Virus record (IMG/VR): IMGVR_UViG_2541047812_000004
Coordinates: 1-37,579 of that record
Source of the DNA: a virus
Lineage: Duplodnaviria; Heunggongvirae; Uroviricota; Caudoviricetes
Strand: one strand, 5' to 3'
Length of the DNA: 37,579 nucleotides
In this document: positions 2,949 through 34,723 of the stretch, in pieces
Numbering within the stretch: position 1 is the first letter of the stretch
How the letters are laid out: each line of letters starts with the position of its first letter
Notes under the pieces: generated by a model
The model's database searches: none
The model's input: the letters and a program-made list of their open reading frames with translations, nothing else
What the model was told of the DNA's origin: nothing
Made by a program: the position numbers and the translations under genes

Positions 2949-3245
2949 ATGCTGACGAAAGAACCATCATTTGCATCGCTGCTGGTAAAACAAAGCCCGG
3001 CAATGCACTACGGTCACGGCTGGATCATGGGTGAGGATGGTAAACGCTGGCATCCGTGCCGTTCACAAGATGAATTGCTGTCTGAATTGACCACGGGGAA
3101 ACGGAGAAAGTCAAAATGTATGCAGCGGAAAGTGAAGTGGTTTATCAGTTTCGTTACAGAGGGGAGAGTTATTCAGTACCTGAAGATGATTTGCTCTGTT
3201 GTTATCCGTCGTTGTCGGGCGATGGCAGTTACTTTTTCACGCTAA
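2949..3245 (+). CDS. Hypothetical early protein (extent uncertain; 3' part overlaps next gene)
   Basis: ATG at 2949 with RBS GAGGTG 4 nt upstream, immediately after cII stop. The last ~130 nt overlap the 3116-3340 ORF in another frame, so the true C-terminus is doubtful. Confidence 0.4.
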   Translation: MLTKEPSFASLLVKQSPAMHYGHGWIMGEDGKRWHPCRSQDELLSELTTGKRRKSKCMQRKVKWFISFVTEGRVIQYLKMICSVVIRRCRAMAVTFSR

Positions 3246-8684: not shown

Positions 8685-10763
8685 ATGCTAATTTTAGAAA
8701 CAACATATAAGTTTTTATCCACCTCGTTAAGGCTTTCTATGAGCAGTTTCTTTTATATCCAGCCTGATTTAAAAAATGATACAAATGCTGATTTTTTGAA
8801 CTCTGTTGAAGAGTATGCAAATACTCATCAAATGCAGATTTATGCAATAATGAATCCCTTAGGGGAAAATAAATATAAATATAATAGAGACGATGTTCTT
8901 ATTATATTAAGCCCAGGATACCAATTAGCGTTCGTTGCTTTTAGTGATGATGTTGATGGTATACAAAATTTTATAGAGGATTTTATAGAGGATTTAGGTT
9001 CCTTATCAGATAAATACAATTATAAAGATACAATTGGTAGGCCTCGAGCGTGGAAAGATAAACTTGTTACTGAGTGCTCATACGCTGATTTTAGTTTCGG
9101 TAATCTTGATAAGTTTTTTGATGAAATTAAAATTATTGATGGTGTTCTGGCTAAAAAGAGTGAGTTAATTATCTCTCTCTTAACAGGAAGTATCAATAAT
9201 ATTGATAAAGTTAAAGGCAATGTGCCAGATAATATACTTGACAAGGTTAAGCAAAAGATAATTTTGTTTGACGGAGATCAGACAAGGTTTGTATACCAAA
9301 AATTTGATAAGAAAAAAGTTGTTATTCAAGGATTATCAGGTACTGGTAAGACTGAACTATTGCTTCATAAGTTAAAGGAAATATATTTGGATAAGGAGAA
9401 TTTAAATAGTAAAATAATGTTTACGTGCCATAATAAAATATTGGCAGACAATATGAGAAAGAGAATTCCAGAGTTTTTCAACTTTATGAAGGTCGAGCAG
9501 CAGATTAGCTGGAATGAAAGACTTTGGTGTGTTAATGCATGGGGTTCTCAATATGACGGTAACTCTGGCGCATATAGATATATATGTGAATATTATGGAT
9601 TAAGTTTCTATCGTTTTAGCTATGTGATGACTTTCGATAAAGTATGTAGAATTGCGTTGGATGAACTAAAAAAGTTGCCAAGCAATGAATTTAAGCATTG
9701 CTTTGACTTTATGTTAATAGATGAAAGTCAGGATTTCCCATCAAGCTTCATTGAGCTTTGCGAGCTGGTAACTCGTGATACTATTTATGTTGCTGGTGAT
9801 ATATTTCAAAGTATATTTGATACTAATATCTCTAATGAGATACAGCCAGACTTTCTTCTAAGTAAATGCTACCGAACAGATCCAAGGACATTGATGTTTG
9901 CTCATGGTTTAGGTATGGGGCTATTTGAAGAAGAACCATTAACTTGGTTAATGAATAATGAATGGGAAGCCTGCGGTTATATAGTTGATGAATCGGTAAA
10001 AGGTAAGTTAAGATTAAAGAGAGAGCCACTAAGAAGATTTGAAGATGTAACGGATGCAAAAATACATAGTGTGGAATTAATTAATTCCACATATGAAACT
10101 GAAGAAGAGAATATTTTGGGTATACTCCGTAAAATTAAGGAGGAGAATCCTACTGTTTTGGCTGATGATATTGGTATCATCTTTATTGATCAGGCTAAGA
10201 CTATATTTAAAATCGCAGACAGACTTGAATTGAGCGTGCCTAGATTATTAGGATGGAAGGTTAATAAGGCATATGAAACAAAAGAAAAAATTAAAGACAC
10301 GTTATTCATAAGTAATAAAAACCATGTAAAAGGGTTGGAGTTTCCTTTTGTTATCTGTGTTACTCGTGATATTATCAAGAGCCATTCTTATCGAAATTCA
10401 CTATATATGATGTTAACTCGTTCCTTTATTAAGTCATATTTGCTTCTGGGAGATGGGAATAAAGACTTACAGAATGAGATAGAAAAGGGGTTAGATGCTA
10501 TTAATGAGCATGGTTATATGGATATTAACGTTCCACCGAGAGAAGTCATTTCAAAAATAAGAACAACAATCAAATATGATGAGAAAAATATATCTCATTA
10601 TGATTTGGTTACAAAGGTCTTCGATGACTTACAGATTGAGCCGATATTTCGTACATCCCTGTATAATACAGTAAAAACAATCATGCCTGATTCTTTTGAT
10701 GTCGATAAAATTACTACTCTTGTTCGGTTCAACTATGAAATAATGCTTCAGGAGTCGAAGTGA
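8685..10763 (+). CDS. SF1 (UvrD/Rep-like) helicase-family P-loop NTPase with unknown ~200-aa N-terminal domain; candidate defence protein
   Basis: Helicase motifs read from translation: I GLSGTGKT, II FMLIDESQDF, III VAGDIFQSIF, IV CYRTDPRTL, VI VKGLEFPFVIC. AT-rich. Alternative start ATG 8739 (MSSFFY..., RBS TAAGG) may be the true start. Confidence 0.75.
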   Translation: MLILETTYKFLSTSLRLSMSSFFYIQPDLKNDTNADFLNSVEEYANTHQMQIYAIMNPLGENKYKYNRDDVLIILSPGYQLAFVAFSDDVDGIQNFIEDFIEDLGSLSDKYNYKDTIGRPRAWKDKLVTECSYADFSFGNLDKFFDEIKIIDGVLAKKSELIISLLTGSINNIDKVKGNVPDNILDKVKQKIILFDGDQTRFVYQKFDKKKVVIQGLSGTGKTELLLHKLKEIYLDKENLNSKIMFTCHNKILADNMRKRIPEFFNFMKVEQQISWNERLWCVNAWGSQYDGNSGAYRYICEYYGLSFYRFSYVMTFDKVCRIALDELKKLPSNEFKHCFDFMLIDESQDFPSSFIELCELVTRDTIYVAGDIFQSIFDTNISNEIQPDFLLSKCYRTDPRTLMFAHGLGMGLFEEEPLTWLMNNEWEACGYIVDESVKGKLRLKREPLRRFEDVTDAKIHSVELINSTYETEEENILGILRKIKEENPTVLADDIGIIFIDQAKTIFKIADRLELSVPRLLGWKVNKAYETKEKIKDTLFISNKNHVKGLEFPFVICVTRDIIKSHSYRNSLYMMLTRSFIKSYLLLGDGNKDLQNEIEKGLDAINEHGYMDINVPPREVISKIRTTIKYDEKNISHYDLVTKVFDDLQIEPIFRTSLYNTVKTIMPDSFDVDKITTLVRFNYEIMLQESK

Positions 10764-11389
10764 ATAAAGAGTATTATTTTAGTCTGGAGCAGGCTCAGTG
10801 TGACTGGGCCTTTAAGCCAATACGAACAAAGAAAGATGTTATTGAAATATTGATGAGATTAATCAAACTAATTTCTGTTTATACAGAACCATGCGAACAG
10901 AATGTGGTTGGGAGAGTGAAACTTCATATATCAAAGATGAGTCGAGTTTTCTTCTTTAGTGAAAATAAATATTATTCTCTTGCATTTCCTTTTTTTCTTG
11001 ATGAAATTAATGGTCAGATTTTATTTAGTAGTCCAGAAATGGAGTGTATAGATAGTTTTGTAACATCAAAAGTCATTTCTTTTATTAATGACTCCTCTTA
11101 TTTGAATAGTTCTTCTTGGGCCTTTTTTGAACCATTGTTAAATATTGAAGAACATCAAGGTATTCCCGGGTTTTGGCCTTTTCTTAGAATGTTGTTAACT
11201 TATGAGGATGGTTATATTAGATATGATGTCGATGAAGAAAGGGCTAATGGAAATCGTCATCCATTATATCATTTCGACGTCTTTTATTCTAATCCGCCAA
11301 CGTTTAAAATTGGTTTGAATGCACATTATACAAATGATGAAATGATTGATTTTCTTGATAGGGAAACTGATTGTCGTTATTTGAAATGA
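10760..11389 (+). CDS. Hypothetical protein (209 aa), partner of the helicase-like gene
   Basis: GTG start at 10760 overlaps upstream stop (GTGA) with AGGAG 5 nt upstream; translational coupling. AT-rich; no recognisable motif. Confidence 0.6.
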   Translation: MNKEYYFSLEQAQCDWAFKPIRTKKDVIEILMRLIKLISVYTEPCEQNVVGRVKLHISKMSRVFFFSENKYYSLAFPFFLDEINGQILFSSPEMECIDSFVTSKVISFINDSSYLNSSSWAFFEPLLNIEEHQGIPGFWPFLRMLLTYEDGYIRYDVDEERANGNRHPLYHFDVFYSNPPTFKIGLNAHYTNDEMIDFLDRETDCRYLK

Positions 11390-12457: not shown

Positions 12458-14223
12458 CAAAAAATCTCCACAATATTACTGGTATTGGCGGACTCGCCCT
12501 GCAGTGGTTCGTTAAACAGTGCGTGCATTGTTGCCCAGGCCAGATCGGCGTGGCTGGCTTCTTCGCTGCGGCTGGCTTCATAGGTCGGGCGGTTGCCACT
12601 GGCGGTGGTGGAGCGACGGATTGCCATAAAGGACTGCGCTATGTCGGTGTGTCCGGCGTCAAACTCCAGACGGCGGTGGCTGATAATGTCGTAGGCCTTG
12701 AGTACCAGGGCGTTTTTAACGTTGGGGTTGTAGACAAACTCCCGGACGGCAGGAAAGAACGCTTTCACGTTCTCGTAAACTCCGTGACCGACACCTGTCG
12801 AGTCGATACCGATATAGGTCACGTTGTACTGTTCGGTCAGTTTTTTGATGGCGTCAGCCTGGGCGCGGAAGTCCATCCCGCGCCACTGGTAACGCTCAAG
12901 AATGCGAAACTTACCGCCTGGCACGGCTGGCGGTGCCACCACCACGCATCCGGCGCTGTCGCCGTTCTGCGTACCTTTTGCCGGGTCATAACCGATCCAC
13001 ACTTCGCGCCAGCCAAACGGGCGCAGGGCCAGAGCATGAAAGTCGGTCCAGACTTCCCAACTGTCCACCATGCACGCCTGCAGCTCGCTGAGCGGGAACA
13101 CGGACGCGAGATCGTCCACGAACTCACACATCAGCAGGTTCTGGTATTCGTCCGGGCTGTATTCCATGCGCAACTGGTCAAGGTCGAACAGGTTACAGCC
13201 GCCGCGCACCGCATCTTCCACGGTGACTATCTGGCGGTATTGCCCGTCTGCGCACAGCAGGCCGGGGGCCAGATTGCTGTGGGACAGGTCGATGTCCACC
13301 TTGTCAGCTTTGTTGCGTCCACGGTTGAACAGCGCACCGGACCAGAACGGATAAGCACTGTGGGTCAGGCTGGATGGCGTGGAAAAATAGGTTTGTCGCC
13401 ATTTCTTGTGAATAGCCATCCCGGAAGCCACTTTGCGCAGCTCCTGGAATTTCGGTATCCAGAAATATTCATCCAGATACAGGTTGCCGTGATAACTCTG
13501 GGCCGTGCGGGCATTGGTGCCGAGGAAGTAAAGCGTGGCTCCGTTAGGAAGCACCATCGGATCGCCTTTTAGCTCCACCTCGACTTCTTTGGCGAAGTCG
13601 ATGATGTATTGTTTAAAGACGTGGGCCTGAGCTTTACTGGCAGAAAGGAAAATCTGGTTACGTCCAGTAAGCAGGGCGTCAATCAGGGCTTCACGGGCAA
13701 AATAGAAGGTCGCGCCGATCTGGCGAGACTTCAGCAGGTTGCGGATGCGGTTGGTTTTTCCGGCTTCCCACCAGTGGCGCTGGTAGTTGAACATGGAGGA
13801 ATGGAAGATTTCTTCCAGCTTCTCAATCTGTTCATCGGTGAAGACATTCTTTTCCGGCTGACGGCGTGGGCCTTTGTTGCGGTTGGCGACGTTAGGGTTT
13901 AAGTCGGCTTCGTTGCCGCCATTGTTAAACTTGCCGATCCGCGCGTGGCGCTCTGACTGGCGCGCCAGCAGGTCAATCTCTTTGAAATCTTTCCCTTCTT
14001 TGTGCTCCTTCATAATGAGCTGGCAGTAGCGGGCGGCGGTGGTGAGCTGCATCTGATCCAGTGGCCCATAGTCACCCCACTTGTCGCGTTTCTTCCAGCT
14101 GTGAACAGTTGCAACTTTCTCGCCCAGCATTTCAGCAATGCGGGCTACGCGGTATCCCTGAAAGTACAGCAGCATGGCCTGCCGACGGGGATCGAGATCT
14201 GCGGGTGTCAGTGTGGTGTTCAT
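12457..14223 (-). CDS. P: Terminase large subunit (P2 gpP-like)
   Basis: 588 aa; ATG at 14223; position divergent from O as in P2. Confidence 0.85.
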   Translation of the reverse strand: MNTTLTPADLDPRRQAMLLYFQGYRVARIAEMLGEKVATVHSWKKRDKWGDYGPLDQMQLTTAARYCQLIMKEHKEGKDFKEIDLLARQSERHARIGKFNNGGNEADLNPNVANRNKGPRRQPEKNVFTDEQIEKLEEIFHSSMFNYQRHWWEAGKTNRIRNLLKSRQIGATFYFAREALIDALLTGRNQIFLSASKAQAHVFKQYIIDFAKEVEVELKGDPMVLPNGATLYFLGTNARTAQSYHGNLYLDEYFWIPKFQELRKVASGMAIHKKWRQTYFSTPSSLTHSAYPFWSGALFNRGRNKADKVDIDLSHSNLAPGLLCADGQYRQIVTVEDAVRGGCNLFDLDQLRMEYSPDEYQNLLMCEFVDDLASVFPLSELQACMVDSWEVWTDFHALALRPFGWREVWIGYDPAKGTQNGDSAGCVVVAPPAVPGGKFRILERYQWRGMDFRAQADAIKKLTEQYNVTYIGIDSTGVGHGVYENVKAFFPAVREFVYNPNVKNALVLKAYDIISHRRLEFDAGHTDIAQSFMAIRRSTTASGNRPTYEASRSEEASHADLAWATMHALFNEPLQGESANTSNIVEIF

Positions 14224-14269
14224 GGCACAAACCTACAGCCTTGAATGAAGGCTTTCCCCGCCTGCGGTT

Positions 14270-14287
14270 TGTGTGGTTGTCGGTACA
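14270..14287. promoter_or_regulatory. Ogr-type late promoter activator site (TGT-N12-ACA) in divergent P/O region
   Basis: tgtgtggttgtcggtaca = TGT-N12-ACA dyad between divergent P (start 14223) and O (start 14365). Confidence 0.6.
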
Positions 14288-14364
14288 AATACCGCGCATT
14301 GTTTCACTGCCCCCATCACCGCAACCATAAGGCTCCAGTAAGTTTTTCTAACGGAGCACGGCTC

Positions 14365-18963: not shown

Positions 18964-19357
18964 AGCGGTGCCTTATGTCCGCAATAATCCGGACAAACTG
19001 CATCTGTTTGTGGATAACGGTTCGCTGGTTGCTACGGGGGCCAGCTCCATGTCATGGGAGTACCGTTACACCCTGAACGTGGTGATTGAGGATTTCAGCG
19101 GCGACCAGAATCTGCTGATGGCCCCGGTTTTGCTGTGGCTGCGGGATAACCAGCCCGATGCCATCAATAACCCAGCGTTACGGGAAAAGTTATTCACCTT
19201 TGAGGTGGATATTCTGCGCAATGATGTCTGTGATATCAGCCTGAACCTGCAACTGACGGAGCGTGTGCTGGTCAGCACTGACGGCAGTGTGTCGAGTGTT
19301 GAAGCTGTAGCGGAACCCGATGAACCTGAAGAAATGTGGACGGTAAAACGTGGCTGA
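18926..19357 (+). CDS. R: Tail completion protein (P2 gpR-like)
   Basis: Similar to recalled P2 gpR (FVDNGS..., YRYTLNVV..., PVLLWLRDNQPD). Start placed at GTG 18926 with AGGAG RBS; ORF-track start 18905 is a TTG. Confidence 0.75.
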   Translation: MNKPQSLRHALNKAVPYVRNNPDKLHLFVDNGSLVATGASSMSWEYRYTLNVVIEDFSGDQNLLMAPVLLWLRDNQPDAINNPALREKLFTFEVDILRNDVCDISLNLQLTERVLVSTDGSVSSVEAVAEPDEPEEMWTVKRG

Positions 19358-19796
19358 ACTGCAGAAGGTGGACGACTGGCTGAGTGCCTTGCTGGCGAAT
19401 CTGGAGCCAGCCGCAAGAAGCCGCATGATGCGCCAGCTGGCGCAGGAACTACGCCGGACACAGCAGCAGAATATCAGAATGCAGCGCAATCCAGATGGCA
19501 GCAGTTATGAACCGCGACGGGTAACAGCACGCAGCAAAAAAGGCCGCATCAAACGTCAGATGTTTACAAAGCTGCGCACCACAAAATACCTGAAAACTGC
19601 CGCCAGCGCCGACTCTGCCAGCGTGCAGTTTGAAGGCAAGGTACAGCGCATTGCCCGTGTTCACCATTACGGCCTGCGTGATCGCGTCAGTCGCAAAGGA
19701 CCGGAGGTCCGTTACGCAGAGCGTCGCCTGCTGGGTGTAAATGATGATTTATACTTTTTAACACGCCGCATTTTATTGCAATGGTTGGCGAGGTAG
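19350..19796 (+). CDS. S: Tail completion protein (P2 gpS-like)
   Basis: GTG start overlapping R stop; size about 148 aa as for P2 S. The last ~20 codons run into the AT-rich cargo boundary. Confidence 0.75.
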   Translation: MAELQKVDDWLSALLANLEPAARSRMMRQLAQELRRTQQQNIRMQRNPDGSSYEPRRVTARSKKGRIKRQMFTKLRTTKYLKTAASADSASVQFEGKVQRIARVHHYGLRDRVSRKGPEVRYAERRLLGVNDDLYFLTRRILLQWLAR

Positions 19797-19853
19797 AGTT
19801 GGTTGACTTTTTGTAGTTCCTACTCTAACCTCACCGATTGATTTTAGGTTATA

Positions 19854-21608
19854 TCAATCCCAAAATAAATTATTATTAATATTGCTCATATCGAAAGTGA
19901 AGTTCTTTTCTGTAATAGTTTCGTACCTTTGTTCATAGATTATTTTTACATATCTAAACCCCTGTGTTACAGAGCGAATTTTTCGGGGTTTTGATGCAAG
20001 CATAACAAGTATTTCAAATACTTTATCAAGATAGTTGTGGGTGTGTTCAACTAAAAGGGGGGTAAATTTACCACCTTTTCCAGAATGGACTATGTTATTT
20101 CTTGTTCTATAAATTCTTCTGAGTTGCCATTCTAATCTTAACTTATGGTTATCTAAAGTTGATTTAATTGACTCCGGGGATGAAACTATGTTTTTTATAT
20201 ACTCGAAACGATCTGAAAGCAATGTGTAATCACGAAATTTAGCGGATAAAGATTCCCTTACTGATTCGTATTCAGGAAGAATCATTATATTGGCTAGTTT
20301 GTGTTTCGCTTTTGCTCCAGGTATTCCTTTTAAATGTGAGTTTAGTATGTGTCTATTCCATAACAGCAGGTCTCGGGTAAGGTTGTCAATTAAGGAGTCT
20401 ATATATGTAATATTCAGGAATGGAATTATACTTGCAGTAATATGTTCTATTGTTGCTTGATCCTTGGATTTAGTGTCTGTCGGCACTAATGATTCAAGAG
20501 CTATCCATAGATTTAAAAGCTGATTTTCAACATTTTCACTTTTTAATGCCATTGAATGTAATTGAATACTTCTCAAGAACTTGGCAAATGAACTATTTTC
20601 TAGAGAAAACTCAGACATCAATGATTCAAGACGTTTCTTGGCCTTTTCATGCTTTAAGTCCTTGCATTTTTTCATGGGGTTAAGTCTTTCAGCCACTTTC
20701 AAAGAGTCTGTATCAGTTATAACGAAAGCTTCATTTGACCAAGTAGGTTTATCTTTATGATGATAAATATTTAAAAAGGATGATGCTAATTTAAGTAGGT
20801 TTTCAGCATTCTCTCTTGCTGAATAAGAATCAAAAGCTTCTATATTTGATACGCAAACTATCTTCTTTCGTTGCAGATTTCTAAAAAAAACATGTTGGGA
20901 AAATTCTTCTGGTGGTTCTTTCTCAACAGACAAAGAGAGTCTTTCGAAAGTTGGCTCTGCGCCTAAAAACACTGGTTCAACAATAAAATATATTTTGTAT
21001 TTCTTTTTTTCGAGTTTTATTAAATCAAAAAAAGAAGAGACATCAGTGTTATTTGATATTTTATTATTCCCATAATAAAAAAATTGCTGGGTTAAATTCT
21101 TAAGATTATGTTGGCTAAAGCCAATGTAGAGTAATAAACTGATATAATTTCTTGTTAGCTTGCGTATGATGCTTCTTTCCCAGTTAGGGGATGATAACTC
21201 TTGGGTGATAAGTTCTTCACTTTTTTCTTTATATAATTTGGGTGGTAATTGAATGACCAGCATTTCAATTATTGAGCTTCTCTCTTTAGGGCTTATGTTA
21301 GTATTTTTTAGTTTGTTGAGAAAAGCTTGGTAAGCATCGCCTAATAAATCTTGTGCTACTTTATCACATGACAAGTTATGTATTAATTCTGCGGTTAAAT
21401 GTTCAATATTTTTAGGCTGAATAATACCATCCTCAACATCTTTAATTGTATTTAAAGTTTCTACTCCAATTGTTGGGGTATTCATCACTGAGGGTTTGTA
21501 TGTGTCCAGTGTATAGTCAAATAGCATTTCATCCAGTAATTGCGCAAAATATACTAGTGCTTTACAAGTGTCTGGGCAATCCCATTTATACAAAGAACGA
21601 AATTTCAT
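19854..21608 (-). CDS. Large AT-rich cargo protein (584 aa) with C-terminal HEPN-like Rx4-6H motif; candidate abortive-infection/defence protein
   Basis: Uninterrupted 584-codon ORF, ATG at 21608, opposite strand to flanking S and V, in the P2 orf30 position. C-terminal segment RRIYRTRNNIVHSG fits the HEPN Rx4-6H signature. Confidence 0.7.
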   Translation of the reverse strand: MKFRSLYKWDCPDTCKALVYFAQLLDEMLFDYTLDTYKPSVMNTPTIGVETLNTIKDVEDGIIQPKNIEHLTAELIHNLSCDKVAQDLLGDAYQAFLNKLKNTNISPKERSSIIEMLVIQLPPKLYKEKSEELITQELSSPNWERSIIRKLTRNYISLLLYIGFSQHNLKNLTQQFFYYGNNKISNNTDVSSFFDLIKLEKKKYKIYFIVEPVFLGAEPTFERLSLSVEKEPPEEFSQHVFFRNLQRKKIVCVSNIEAFDSYSARENAENLLKLASSFLNIYHHKDKPTWSNEAFVITDTDSLKVAERLNPMKKCKDLKHEKAKKRLESLMSEFSLENSSFAKFLRSIQLHSMALKSENVENQLLNLWIALESLVPTDTKSKDQATIEHITASIIPFLNITYIDSLIDNLTRDLLLWNRHILNSHLKGIPGAKAKHKLANIMILPEYESVRESLSAKFRDYTLLSDRFEYIKNIVSSPESIKSTLDNHKLRLEWQLRRIYRTRNNIVHSGKGGKFTPLLVEHTHNYLDKVFEILVMLASKPRKIRSVTQGFRYVKIIYEQRYETITEKNFTFDMSNINNNLFWD

Positions 21609-21624
21609 TTTTGTTATTCCATAT

Positions 21625-21642
21625 TGTAAGACCGCTCATACA
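21625..21642. promoter_or_regulatory. Ogr-type late promoter activator site (TGT-N12-ACA) upstream of V
   Basis: tgtaagaccgctcataca = TGT-N12-ACA, about 47 bp upstream of the V ATG. Confidence 0.55.
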
Positions 21643-21688
21643 AATACATATGTTTTAAGATAAATGCAAGATGTTGAATCATTGCCCT

Positions 21689-22267
21689 ATGAACGCACAA
21701 CTAACCGAAATCATGCGCCTTATCACCAACCTGATCCGCACTGGGGTAGTCACCGAAGTGGACAGGGAAAACTGGCTTTGCCGGGTGAAAACGGGCGAGC
21801 TTGAAACCAACTGGATCAGCTGGCTGACGCTGCGTGCCGGGAATGCCCGCACATGGTGGCGACCATCGGAAGGTGAGCAGGTTGTGCTGCTGAGTCTGGG
21901 CGGCAATCTGGAAACCGCCTTTGCGCTGCCCGCTGTCTATTCGAATCAGTTCGCACCACCGTCTACGTCGGCGGACGCCTGCGTGACAGAACATCCTGAC
22001 GGCGCCTGGTTTGAATACGAACCCGCCACCGGGCGCTGGTATGTCAGGGGCATCAAATCAATGGTCATTGAGGCCGCTGACAACATCACCATGAAAACCA
22101 GTGAGTTTGTGCTGGAGGCTGACCGCACGCGTATTAACAGCGAAGTGGTGATCAATGGTGGCGTTACCCAGGGCGGCGGAGCGATGAGTTCTAACGGGAT
22201 CGTGGTTGATGCGCATCAGCATACTGGCGTTCTGAAAGGCGGCGACACAACCGGAGGCCCGGTATGA
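21689..22267 (+). CDS. V: Baseplate spike protein (P2 gpV-like)
   Basis: MNAQLTEIMRLITNLIRTGVVTEVD... parallels recalled P2 gpV N-terminus; start placed at ATG 21689. Confidence 0.85.
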   Translation: MNAQLTEIMRLITNLIRTGVVTEVDRENWLCRVKTGELETNWISWLTLRAGNARTWWRPSEGEQVVLLSLGGNLETAFALPAVYSNQFAPPSTSADACVTEHPDGAWFEYEPATGRWYVRGIKSMVIEAADNITMKTSEFVLEADRTRINSEVVINGGVTQGGGAMSSNGIVVDAHQHTGVLKGGDTTGGPV

Positions 22268-25699: not shown

Positions 25700-26304
25700 T
25701 GTATAACGCCATCTTAAATAATAAATTTATTGCCACAAAGGCAGGAGAGATTACCGTTTATAACTATGACAGTGAGACACGGGAGTATATTTCTGCATCA
25801 ATTGAATATCTTGCTGTGGGTGTCGGTATCCCCGCATATTCCTGTTTAGATGCTCCTGGCACACATAAGGATGGTTATGCAATCTGCCGTTCGGCAGATT
25901 TTAACTCATGGGAATATGTGCCAGACCATCGCGGTGAAGTTGTCTATAACACCGAAACGGGAGAATCAAAAGAAATCACAGCTCCGGGGGATTACCCTGA
26001 TAATACAACCACTATCGCCCCGTTAACGCTATACGATAAATGGGATGGTGAGAAATGGGTGACGGATACCGAGGCACAGCATAGCGCCGCAGTAGATGCA
26101 GCAGAAGCACAGCGCCAGTCGCTGATGGATACTGCAATGGCTTCCATCAATCTGATTCAACTGAAATTACAGGCCGGACGGAGTCTGACGCAGGCAGAAA
26201 CCAACCGACTTAACACGGTGCTGAATTACATTGACGCAGTGACGGCAACAGATACCAGCACCGCGCCTGATATTATTTGGCCTGTATTCCCTGAGACTGA
26301 TTAA
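25696..26304 (+). CDS. G: Tail fibre assembly protein (P2 gpG-like)
   Basis: Tfa-type N-terminus (MMYNAILNNKFI...) and C-terminal WPVFP; overlaps H stop. Confidence 0.8.
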   Translation: MMYNAILNNKFIATKAGEITVYNYDSETREYISASIEYLAVGVGIPAYSCLDAPGTHKDGYAICRSADFNSWEYVPDHRGEVVYNTETGESKEITAPGDYPDNTTTIAPLTLYDKWDGEKWVTDTEAQHSAAVDAAEAQRQSLMDTAMASINLIQLKLQAGRSLTQAETNRLNTVLNYIDAVTATDTSTAPDIIWPVFPETD

Positions 26305-26533
26305 CCTCAATTAGTATTGGTTCGCCTTTCTCATTAATTGTTAGCTCCATGCCCTGAGGAATTTCTGTAATAGTAAAAAACCAGTTGTCCTCCGGTAATT
26401 CAATAGCCCCGGTCACGTCATGAAGACCGGGGATTACTTCAGTCAAAGTAACTGGATTAAACAGGCGCACAATAAACCCTCCAGGAAAAAGCATTTGATG
26501 ATGGTCTGCCGTCGTACATCTGGCAGCGGGCAT
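26273..26533 (-). CDS. Possible alternative tail-fibre assembly gene (inverted cassette, may be truncated)
   Basis: Convergent with G, overlapping at the 3' ends, inside the invertible segment; only 86 aa and it overlaps the alternative fibre cassette, so integrity is doubtful. Confidence 0.35.
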   Translation of the reverse strand: MPAARCTTADHHQMLFPGGFIVRLFNPVTLTEVIPGLHDVTGAIELPEDNWFFTITEIPQGMELTINEKGEPILIEVNQSQGIQAK

Positions 26534-26786
26534 AAAAGCCGGTATTTGTTACCTGATCATCCACGATCATTGAAACGTGAACATTATTAGGTGTGCTCTC
26601 GTAATCCGTTCTTATTCTTTCCGCGATACTGATAAAACGTGAAAGTTTAGGCAGTGCAATTGGGTAAACAACTTTAGCCAGTCCATTATCATTAGATCCA
26701 CCGGTTCCAAATACTTCTATTGCACCATCTGACCAGCGTATCCATGCACCATTGGCATTAGCTCCTCGCTGAATGACATATCTGGC
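26457..26786 (-). other. Alternative tail-fibre C-terminal cassette (promoterless, fused to H only after inversion)
   Basis: Minus-strand frame reads through the right crossover site (FLNVGLGE...) and continues about 110 codons; it shares the LGLGE junction with H at the left site; no independent RBS or start expected. Confidence 0.55.
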
Positions 26787-26812
26787 TTCTCCCAAACCAA
26801 CGTTTAAGAAAA
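26787..26812. repeat. hix/gix-like recombination site (right crossover site)
   Basis: ttctcccaaacc-aa-cgtttaagaaaa; inverted relative to the site at 25149-25174 (shared 12-bp half-site ggtttgggagaa on opposite strands). Confidence 0.65.
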
Positions 26813-26867
26813 TGCAGCGATTACGACTAACTGGCATCATCCCCGATTTTTATTCAAGGAGATGATC

Positions 26868-27434
26868 ATGCTTATTGGTTATGTACGCGTGTCAACAAAT
26901 GACCAGAACACCGATTTGCAACGTAATGCACTGAATTGCGCGGGATGTGAGCGGATTTTTGAGGACAAAATCAGTGGCACTAAGTCCGACAGACCGGGGC
27001 TTAAAAAACTGCTTAGGACACTATCGGCAGGAGACACTCTGGTTGTCTGGAAGCTGGACAGGTTGGGGCGCAGTATGCGGCATCTTGTTACGCTGATAGA
27101 AGAGTTGCGCCAGCGTGGTGTGAATTTCCGAAGCCTGACTGACAGTATTGATACCAGCACCCCAATGGGCCGTTTCTTTTTTCATGTCATGGGGGCCTTG
27201 GCTGAAATGGAACGCGAACTGATAGTTGAACGTACCAGGGCAGGGCTGGCTGCAGCTCGTGTTAAAGGCAGAGTAGGTGGACGCCGTCCTAAGTTGACCA
27301 GCGAACAGTGGGCACAGATTGGGCGTTTACTCGAGGCCGGAGAATCAAGACAGCGTATTGCACTGATTTTTGATGTGGGCGTTTCTACCATTTATCGAAA
27401 ATTTCCGGCAAATAAGAGCAATGAATCTCCCTGA
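26868..27434 (+). CDS. Serine recombinase DNA invertase (Pin/Gin/Hin/Cin family)
   Basis: MLIGYVRVSTNDQNTDLQRNAL... with catalytic Ser in YVRVST is very similar to recalled e14 Pin; C-terminal HTH. Start at ATG 26868 with AAGGAG RBS. Confidence 0.9.
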   Translation: MLIGYVRVSTNDQNTDLQRNALNCAGCERIFEDKISGTKSDRPGLKKLLRTLSAGDTLVVWKLDRLGRSMRHLVTLIEELRQRGVNFRSLTDSIDTSTPMGRFFFHVMGALAEMERELIVERTRAGLAAARVKGRVGGRRPKLTSEQWAQIGRLLEAGESRQRIALIFDVGVSTIYRKFPANKSNESP

Positions 27435-27482
27435 ATCAGCTTTATTTTGATTATCCCTGAGAGCAGATAAATACCGTCATTT

Positions 27483-27500
27483 TGTGTGAATAACGGTACA
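27483..27500. promoter_or_regulatory. Ogr-type late promoter activator site (TGT-N12-ACA) upstream of FI
   Basis: tgtgtgaataacggtaca = TGT-N12-ACA, about 77 bp upstream of the FI ATG. Confidence 0.55.
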
Positions 27501-27576
27501 ACTGCGCTTAGCTGTTTGTCAGGCACAATCACTTCAACATAGGGCGAAGCCTAATCCAATCAGGAGGTTCGCCACT

Positions 27577-34414: not shown

Positions 34415-34504
34415 TTCTTCGCAATGGAGAACTTTTAAGTTTGCAAAATGGAATAATGCGGTATCATTGTTGTGAATTTAGCAAAAATGGGGAGAACTCG
34501 AAAA

Positions 34505-34723
34505 ATGATGATTTGCCCACTGTGTGGAAGTGCCGCCCATACTCGCAGCAGTTTTCAGGTATCTTCATTGACCAAAGAGCGTTACAACCAGTGCCAGAAC
34601 ATTAACTGCAGCCATACTTTTGTTACCCATGAAACTTTTGTTCGTTCGATTGCAACGCCAAAAGAGTCAAATCCGGTTCAGCCGCATCCAATGAAATCAG
34701 GACAGGTGGCGCTCTCTCTTTGA
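34505..34723 (+). CDS. ogr: Late transcription activator, Ogr/Delta zinc-finger family
   Basis: CPLCGSAAH...CQNINCSHTF matches Ogr CxxC...CxxxxC zinc-finger pattern (recalled P2 Ogr: CPLCQHAAH...CQNVNCSATF). Start ATG 34505; ORF-track start at 34472 rejected. Confidence 0.85.
   Translation: MMICPLCGSAAHTRSSFQVSSLTKERYNQCQNINCSHTFVTHETFVRSIATPKESNPVQPHPMKSGQVALSL

Follow-up and report, generated by a model that had tools for sequence, protein, structure and literature searches.

The DNA analyzed here, called the window throughout, is a stretch of 37,579 nt that represents a P2-like (Peduoviridae) prophage with an integrase at its left end. The sequenced phages closest to it are Escherichia phage 500465-1 and Klebsiella phage 4LV2017. 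A plus-strand ORF at 34472..34723 encodes a late activator of the Ogr/Delta zinc-finger family (Pfam Ogr_Delta, 6.7e-22, residues 15-60), and a host permease gene comes next. The ORF is given here as listed, and its actual start is probably internal.

Between genes S and V, the GC content falls from ~0.56 in the flanks to ~0.32 across an AT-rich island of ~1.9 kb. This island carries a single ORF of 584 codons on the minus strand (19854..21608; GC ~0.32). The gene on its left is S (19350..19796, plus strand; Pfam Phage_tail_S, 1.1e-39), which functions in tail completion or virion morphogenesis, and the gene on its right is V (21689..22267, plus strand; Pfam Phage_base_V and Apex), which encodes the baseplate spike. 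V is followed by ORFs on the same strand, and W, J, and I domains could be recognized in the corresponding genes of relatives. The putative V promoter heads this late morphogenetic operon (V W J I H G).

S and the 584-aa ORF converge on a short gap that holds a strong hairpin (19787..19835). Its minimum free energy is -26.9 kcal/mol on the plus strand (z = -4.3) and -29.1 kcal/mol on the minus strand (z = -5.7). Its shape recalls a bidirectional terminator that lacks a clean T-run, and a consensus terminator scan did not call it. A search of Rfam over 19600..21900 returned no RNA family match. The record for phage P2 has a putative O-operon terminator at the position that the hairpin occupies in the window.

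On the other side of the island, the 584-aa ORF and V diverge from a non-coding gap that, as read from the sequence, spans 21609..21688 (80 bp). The CAT at 21606..21608 is the reverse-strand ATG of the ORF, and V opens with ATG AAC GCA at 21689. A mechanically compiled ORF list begins V at the in-frame ATG 21671 instead. The annotated V starts of relatives and the point at which homology begins both indicate that the genuine start is 21689.

The product of the 584-aa ORF is identical at 582 of 584 residues, over its full length, to Ec3ApeA (PDB 9HXJ, found by PDB sequence search), from which it differs by T135I and V190A. It also aligns with Ec2ApeA (E = 8.7e-135) and Ec1ApeA (1.9e-11), and PADLOC reports an ApeA match (1.4e-13) in its C-terminal part, while Pfam gave no match for the protein. 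Translation and alignment reveal the HEPN R-x4-6-H motif as R503-NNIV-H508 (RNNIVH). By homology, the cargo is assigned as the known anti-phage gene apeA, which encodes a single-protein HEPN abortive-infection defense. A GGA resembling a Shine-Dalgarno sequence lies 9 nt before the apeA ATG (21618..21620, minus strand), and it recurs at the same spacing in cassettes whose ApeA proteins are 42-81% identical. This conservation, together with the N-terminus of the PDB construct, supports 21608 as the actual start of apeA.

The preprint that solved the structure (bioRxiv 10.64898/2026.01.26.701840) describes ApeA as a single-gene abortive infection system that cuts tRNA anticodon loops and is switched on by deoxydinucleotides. 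It credits Ec3ApeA with “moderate protection” when the gene is expressed from a T7 promoter, and a term search of its text turned up neither a prophage context nor a native promoter for Ec3ApeA. The window therefore places a structurally solved protein in its native context, which is the S-V slot of P2-like prophages.

The predicted late promoter of gene V

Within the 80-bp gap, TGT (21625..21627) is followed by 12 nt (AAGACCGCTCAT) and then by ACA (21640..21642). This dyad core, TGTAAGACCGCTCATACA, occupies 21625..21642, and one further pair of matching nucleotides extends it to TTGT-N12-ACAA (21624..21643). Its center at 21633.5 lies 55.5 nt before the V ATG. The TGT-N12-ACA pattern is the consensus published for Ogr-dependent late promoters (PMC3931495). 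The first-pass annotation had reported this dyad, had placed a divergent cargo gene beside it with a start codon ending at 21608, and had proposed the dyad as the Ogr site of the V late promoter. The sequence confirms the dyad and the cargo gene, and both the position of the dyad and the presence of an Ogr/Delta gene support its proposed role as activator site. The close adjacency of dyad and cargo also stands, although the spacing is 16 nt and the reported 17 bp is merely the difference between two coordinates.

The bare TGT-N12-ACA motif is not enriched in the window, where it occurs 10 times compared with 9.8 +/- 3.1 times in shuffled sequences. Because it occurs at the level of chance, the argument for an activator site leans on its position and on an extended form of the motif. 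The extended form, TTGT-N11-TACAA, is enriched, with three sites in 37.6 kb against 0.27 expected, and none of 100 shuffles equaled this number. Besides the site before V at 21624, it occurs only at 14269 in the divergent P/O late promoter region (14269..14288) and at 27482 upstream of FI, where the F late promoter is expected (27482..27501). These three sites are the late-promoter positions of a P2-type genome.

The corresponding region of P2 (orf30 and P_V, NC_001895 9439..10308) is organized in the same manner, with an AT-rich, non-essential gene that lies between S and V and diverges from V. The P2 record gives the order as S, a putative terminator, the divergent orf30 (start 10224), an activator site (10239..10266), and V (10308). 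The activator site is annotated as “activator binding site; activation of pV promoter,” and a “transcription start site for V operon” is placed at 10308, on the V start codon. The distance from activator center to V ATG is 55.5 nt in both phages. Likewise, orf30 and V are separated by 83 bp, compared with 80 bp between apeA and V, and the orf30 start lies 14 bp from the activator site as annotated in P2, or 18 nt when measured to TGT, where the apeA start lies 16 nt from TGT. The two loci differ in cargo, as orf30 has no known function whereas the window carries ApeA, and in the dyad itself, which is TGT-N11-ACA in P2 and TGT-N12-ACA here. The two promoters are otherwise unrelated, and the V proteins are mostly 30-60% identical across alignment bins. 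Because P2 shares the layout, the back-to-back arrangement is ordinary for this locus.

P2 gene V is a textbook example of a leaderless mRNA. A search of the literature for a leaderless P2 V mRNA found nothing, and the claim leans on the annotation of NC_001895. When this annotation is transferred to the window and combined with the comparative signals described below, V transcription would be expected to start on the V ATG at 21689, and the V mRNA would be leaderless.

An alignment anchored at the V ATG compared eleven independent promoter types, comprising nine types from the S-V interval of close relatives, P2, and a cassette from Pantoea. The only columns kept in at least nine of the 11 types are T at -66/-65, A at -47, A at -11, and T at -7. 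The two T columns belong to the left half-site of the dyad and the A at -47 to the right half-site. The A at -11 is present in 10 types and the T at -7 in nine (binomial tails of 1e-4 and 1e-3, respectively). We interpret these two columns as the defining bases of a -10 element whose spacing matches transcription that begins at the V ATG. In the window they fall in the -10-like hexamer AATCAT (21677..21682, plus strand).

Neither a V Shine-Dalgarno sequence nor any common sequence before the ATG was found in any cassette type. This absence provides independent comparative support for a leaderless V mRNA, which in turn explains how a variable segment can reach the V ATG. A leaderless mRNA would leave the whole promoter free to be swapped together with the cargo. 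Taken together, the dyad, its spacing, and the -10-like hexamer fit a predicted Ogr/Delta-dependent late promoter of the P2 type.

Cassettes in the S-V slot

To type the S-V interval, 80 viral contigs were selected by a V protein identity of 98% or more with the window. In 64 of these phages the slot is empty, with just 68 bp between S and V. The others carry eight different cassettes, that of the window among them, and each consists of a single ORF divergent from V. The cassettes are AT-rich, with GC contents of 0.33-0.36. The likely cargo start lies ~4-40 nt from the dyad across cassette types, some of these starts being internal start codons chosen by hand, and the start in the Pantoea cassette is 50 nt away.

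In all nine S-V types, TGT-N12-ACA begins between -63 and -65 from the V ATG, and the chance of finding a dyad in this register is ~1e-3 per type. The sequence between dyad and ATG is otherwise unrelated from one type to another. Over the 45 nt from dyad to ATG, the window and the empty allele are identical at 15 positions (chance 0.23), and the GC content is 29% in the window versus 58% in the empty allele. By comparison, V is 96-100% identical in nucleotides to that of the closest empty-site relatives, and in every type no less than 87% of its nucleotides (26/30) match from the first 30-nt bin onward. Homology with the empty-site relatives resumes at the V ATG.

The left edge of the variable segment can be placed in a similar manner. 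The GC content falls from ~19700-19800, and the last ~47 nt of S (from ~19750) are recoded and AT-rich. Homology of S with the empty-site relatives stops after ...GTAAATGATGAT, and the last ~15 codons (19750..19796) read …DDLYFLTRRILLQWLAR in the window but …DDVEAMTRDIILQWLAG in the empty-site phages. Because these terminal codons are recoded, the left cassette junction lies inside S, ~47 nt before its stop codon, and we regard the 3′ end of S from ~19750 as part of the variable segment.

Cassettes that carry ApeA in other hosts offer a further comparison. Those from Citrobacter, Klebsiella, and a metagenome phage (60-81% protein identity) keep a region of 80-83 bp between cargo and V. This region is 61-80% identical among the ApeA cassettes, compared with 36-55% identity at apeA third codon positions. 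In these alignments, the 80-bp promoter region co-varies with the cargo and not with V.

The first-pass annotation had suggested that the cargo inserted right beside an essential late promoter and left that promoter intact. This account does not agree with the comparison above, in which the promoter core matches the empty-site promoter at only one position in three and the promoter itself is part of the AT-rich variable segment. Nor is the layout special to this insertion, as all eight cassette types and P2 orf30 have it. Because the promoter sequence differs by type while the dyad keeps its register, each cassette carries its own predicted V promoter. On this evidence, the promoter is best described as a component of the exchanged unit rather than as a sequence that the insertion spared. 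The tempting story of a lucky insertion is thereby corrected, since the essential V promoter would belong to an exchangeable accessory cassette.

The cassettes have probably been swapped by homologous recombination within S and V. A full cassette would span ~19750 to 21688 and include the recoded tail of S, the hairpin, apeA, and its own P_V, and it would move between phages through recombination in the conserved coding sequences on either side. Such swaps would retain only what the activator and RNA polymerase need, namely the dyad, its spacing, A at -11, and T at -7. The eleven promoter types can accordingly be viewed as natural “promoter replacements” before the same gene that dissect the needs of an Ogr-type promoter.

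The same rule holds across 80 further loci drawn from the true P2 clade, where the content between S and V is again variable and low in GC. In three cassettes of this clade (L141, L119, and L169), however, the V-proximal ~25-35 nt are common with the empty allele. The right junction can therefore fall inside the promoter instead of at the ATG.

The S-V slot resembles the hotspots known as old/tin, Z/fun, and orf30 in P2-like phages, which are small, low in GC, and high in turnover, and which carry cargo that is defensive or uncharacterized. The orf30 locus is described as one of three recognized places at which P2-like phages have acquired genes horizontally (PMC3091744), and a tail-gene hotspot accounts for 16% of P2 defense systems in a recent survey (PMC13586616). 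The “TO region” refers to tin/old and is distinct from the S-V slot (PMC6823313). Of the three hotspots the S-V slot is the least described, and term searches of hotspot papers found no statement that a late promoter lies within the variable unit. The apeA/V pair is an ordinary case of a known arrangement, and the carriage of promoters by cassettes is a modest general point.

Other cargos in the slot include a 311-aa protein that PADLOC lists as the candidate PDC-S15 (8.5e-32) and a protein of ~390 aa with an R-x4-H motif (RDKIAH) and no database match; both belong to cassettes on two further contigs (L082, 3764..4945; L058, 3980..4915). Four additional S-V cassette cargos had no match in PADLOC.

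Prophages of Citrobacter, Klebsiella, and Pantoea carry ApeA homologs in this slot that are 42-81% identical. Two metagenome sequences add a 64% identical homolog between S and V remnants of a decayed prophage, and a 60% identical homolog beside S on a contig that stops before the full V gene. A copy in Burkholderia is not phage-borne and adjoins a restriction-modification system. The exact cassette of the window is rare and occurs in one of 5426 complete E. coli genomes, that of E. coli EC416 (NZ_AP027404.1, 3811950..3813899; 99.7% identity). The annotation of EC416 shows two hypothetical proteins under the cassette match, and a 372-aa fragment cluster (P0015) exists. The gene may be split in this strain.

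An intact homolog (77% identity) is also present in the chromosome of Serratia marcescens (L010, 2880..4755), where an RND efflux gene flanks it on one side and a PAD_porph gene on the other; this arrangement was seen on 11 contigs. The copy keeps ~130 nt of the phage gap and ~45 nt of the 5′ end of V, and the right half-site of its dyad is disrupted (ACA to ATA). The locus resembles a domesticated relic of a P2-like prophage that has decayed. We considered this remnant as a natural experiment on the dyad, but a hand count put divergence at a uniform ~80% across the region and thus gave no sign of selective dyad decay.

Expression of apeA across the shared 80 bp

The nearest genes upstream of apeA, from V onward, run in the opposite direction. 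Read-through is therefore unlikely, and the apeA promoter must fall within the 80 bp or the very beginning of V. Unfortunately, a consensus sigma-70 scan found nothing for apeA in or near the 80 bp, and a PWM scan of all cassette types gave only matches that were weak, inconsistent in position, or inside an ORF. Four candidates picked by eye were set aside as poor or not conserved. These are TTGCAT-17-TATTTG, TTATCT-17-TATGAG, TTGTAT-16-TGGAAT (which would make apeA leaderless), and TTCGGT-17-GGCAAT (which reaches into V).

Between them, the dyad, the V -10 region, and the apeA ribosome-binding site can account for all blocks conserved among the ApeA cassettes. The conserved pattern is thus fully covered by P_V and this ribosome-binding site, and nothing positively marks an apeA promoter. 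The first-pass annotation held that the cargo promoter must overlap the Ogr site. Its location in or just beyond the 80 bp is upheld by the orientation of the neighboring genes, whereas no promoter could be located within that interval.

Any apeA start within the gap would put the dyad in the core promoter or the leader of apeA. From this geometry, the apeA promoter must overlap P_V or, at most, the first nucleotides of V. Transcription from the two start points would then diverge across less than ~80 bp, so that both promoters could not be occupied together. Given the established footprint sizes of RNA polymerase, two polymerases would not be expected to fit on both promoters at once. Mutual exclusion of the apeA and V promoters is therefore a likely prediction.

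We judge it probable that the 80 bp comprise an Ogr-dependent P_V inside a swappable cassette, with an apeA promoter overlaid on it and likely occluded. The parts of P_V would be the activator dyad at -55.5, the weak -10 element AATCAT, and a start on the V ATG, and apeA would have its own Ogr-independent promoter atop P_V or in the first nucleotides of V. In a lysogen, where Ogr is absent, apeA would most likely be expressed constitutively at a low level. During late lytic growth, Ogr and RNA polymerase on P_V would leave apeA occluded rather than activated. More tentatively, every S-V defense cassette might carry its own Ogr-responsive P_V over the promoter of its defense gene, so that late activation shuts off the resident abortive-infection toxin. 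If the overlap does work as a switch, it would show a prophage silencing its own abortive-infection gene during its own lytic cycle.

It is conceivable, if doubtful, that no coupling exists at all, and that the tight packing reflects a genome size limited by the capsid, with apeA expressed weakly at all times and unaffected by Ogr. P2 and P4 elements generally keep their accessory loci compact (PMC9122126), and every conserved position in the gap is accounted for by P_V and the apeA ribosome-binding site. Furthermore, cargo starts lie anywhere from 4 to 50 nt from the dyad in different cassettes, a spread that speaks against a precise common mechanism. Nevertheless, polymerases could hardly serve both promoters at the same time, and some interference would be hard to avoid.

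It appears unlikely that cargo in the slot is read from a shared antisense promoter in the first ~60 nt of V, with the 80 bp serving as leader. Such a promoter would be in keeping with V codons ~7-17, which are near-invariant in nucleotides even where V is only ~55-65% identical, and with the Serratia remnant, which retained its segment of V along with the gene. In some cassettes a -35-like TTCGGT (V codons 5-7) also pairs with a good -10 by the V ATG, as with TACAAT in Klebsiella and TATGAT in Citrobacter, both read by eye, and TATTAT in L058. The -10 of the window, however, is a poor GGCAAT, and none of the top four PWM matches starts inside V. Because the N-terminus of V is conserved as protein, this constraint alone would explain much of the nucleotide conservation.

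The insertion of a foreign gene just upstream of a pre-existing V promoter, which would make the close spacing accidental, is very improbable. This reading would accommodate the sharp drop in GC between S and V, and also the empty 68-bp gap of many close relatives, which already has the dyad in the same register. It is at odds with the divergence of the promoter core in sequence and in GC content beside a nearly identical V, with the occurrence of eight unrelated cassettes that each have a different promoter sequence and a dyad in register, and with the co-divergence of the 80 bp and apeA across hosts.

The remaining reading relies on the P_P/P_O region of P2, where one activator site (3057..3087) serves starts that lie 56 and 55 nt away on its two sides and both are activated. 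The P/O region and the S-V gap of the window share the activator family, the type of dyad, and a divergent pair of genes around a single site, and the extended dyad here is perfectly palindromic at its ends. Unlike in P2 P/O, the left-hand gene in the window begins 25 nt from the dyad center. With this spacing in place of ~55 nt, the P/O mechanism cannot apply at apeA/V.

Accordingly, we give almost no credence to a bidirectional co-activation of apeA and V by Ogr. The first-pass annotation had raised both a coupling of the cargo to late-gene activation and its repression; geometry excludes activation in the P/O manner, whereas repression or occlusion is plausible. The mirror-image start, 55.5 nt leftward from the dyad center, would fall at 21578, 30 nt within an apeA ORF whose N-terminus and ribosome-binding site are conserved and whose N-terminus matches the solved protein. 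Cargo starts across the cassettes are estimated at ~4-40 nt from the dyad where at least 46 nt are needed (only Pantoea, at 50 nt, could fit). A defense gene that serves the lysogen would, moreover, presumably not be restricted to late expression.

Other features of the prophage

V codons 7-17 (21707..21739; GAA ATC ATG CGC CTT ATC ACC AAC CTG ATC CGC) are nearly invariant, and V codons 11-20 of Pantoea are 97% identical in nucleotides despite a V gene that is otherwise ~55-65% identical. This invariance may reflect protein constraint, homogenization at a junction, or an embedded signal. As proof of an embedded antisense promoter it was set aside, being confounded by protein conservation.

Elsewhere in the window, the plus-strand region 8685..11389 encodes a UvrD-like SF1 helicase of 692 aa, with a PADLOC “Helicase” match (2.9e-28) and weak matches to GajB. 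A 209-aa ORF that overlaps the helicase gene had no family match. The locus is probably a second defense system of the prophage, and by analogy with P2 gene order it would correspond to the A-to-Q (old/tin) hotspot. Downstream from the presumed tail-fiber ORFs, a serine DNA invertase (26862..27434; Resolvase and HTH_7) lies beside minus-strand ORFs (26273..26840). The arrangement suggests that 26273..27434 is a Gin/Cin-type invertible host-range segment.

At the P/O region, the dyad center (14278.5) lies 55.5 nt from the first ATG of terminase gene P (14223), and the strand of gene P has TAGGTT at -12..-7 (region 14212..14288). Gene P of the window phage may therefore also be leaderless, unlike P2 gene P, which has a 23-nt leader.
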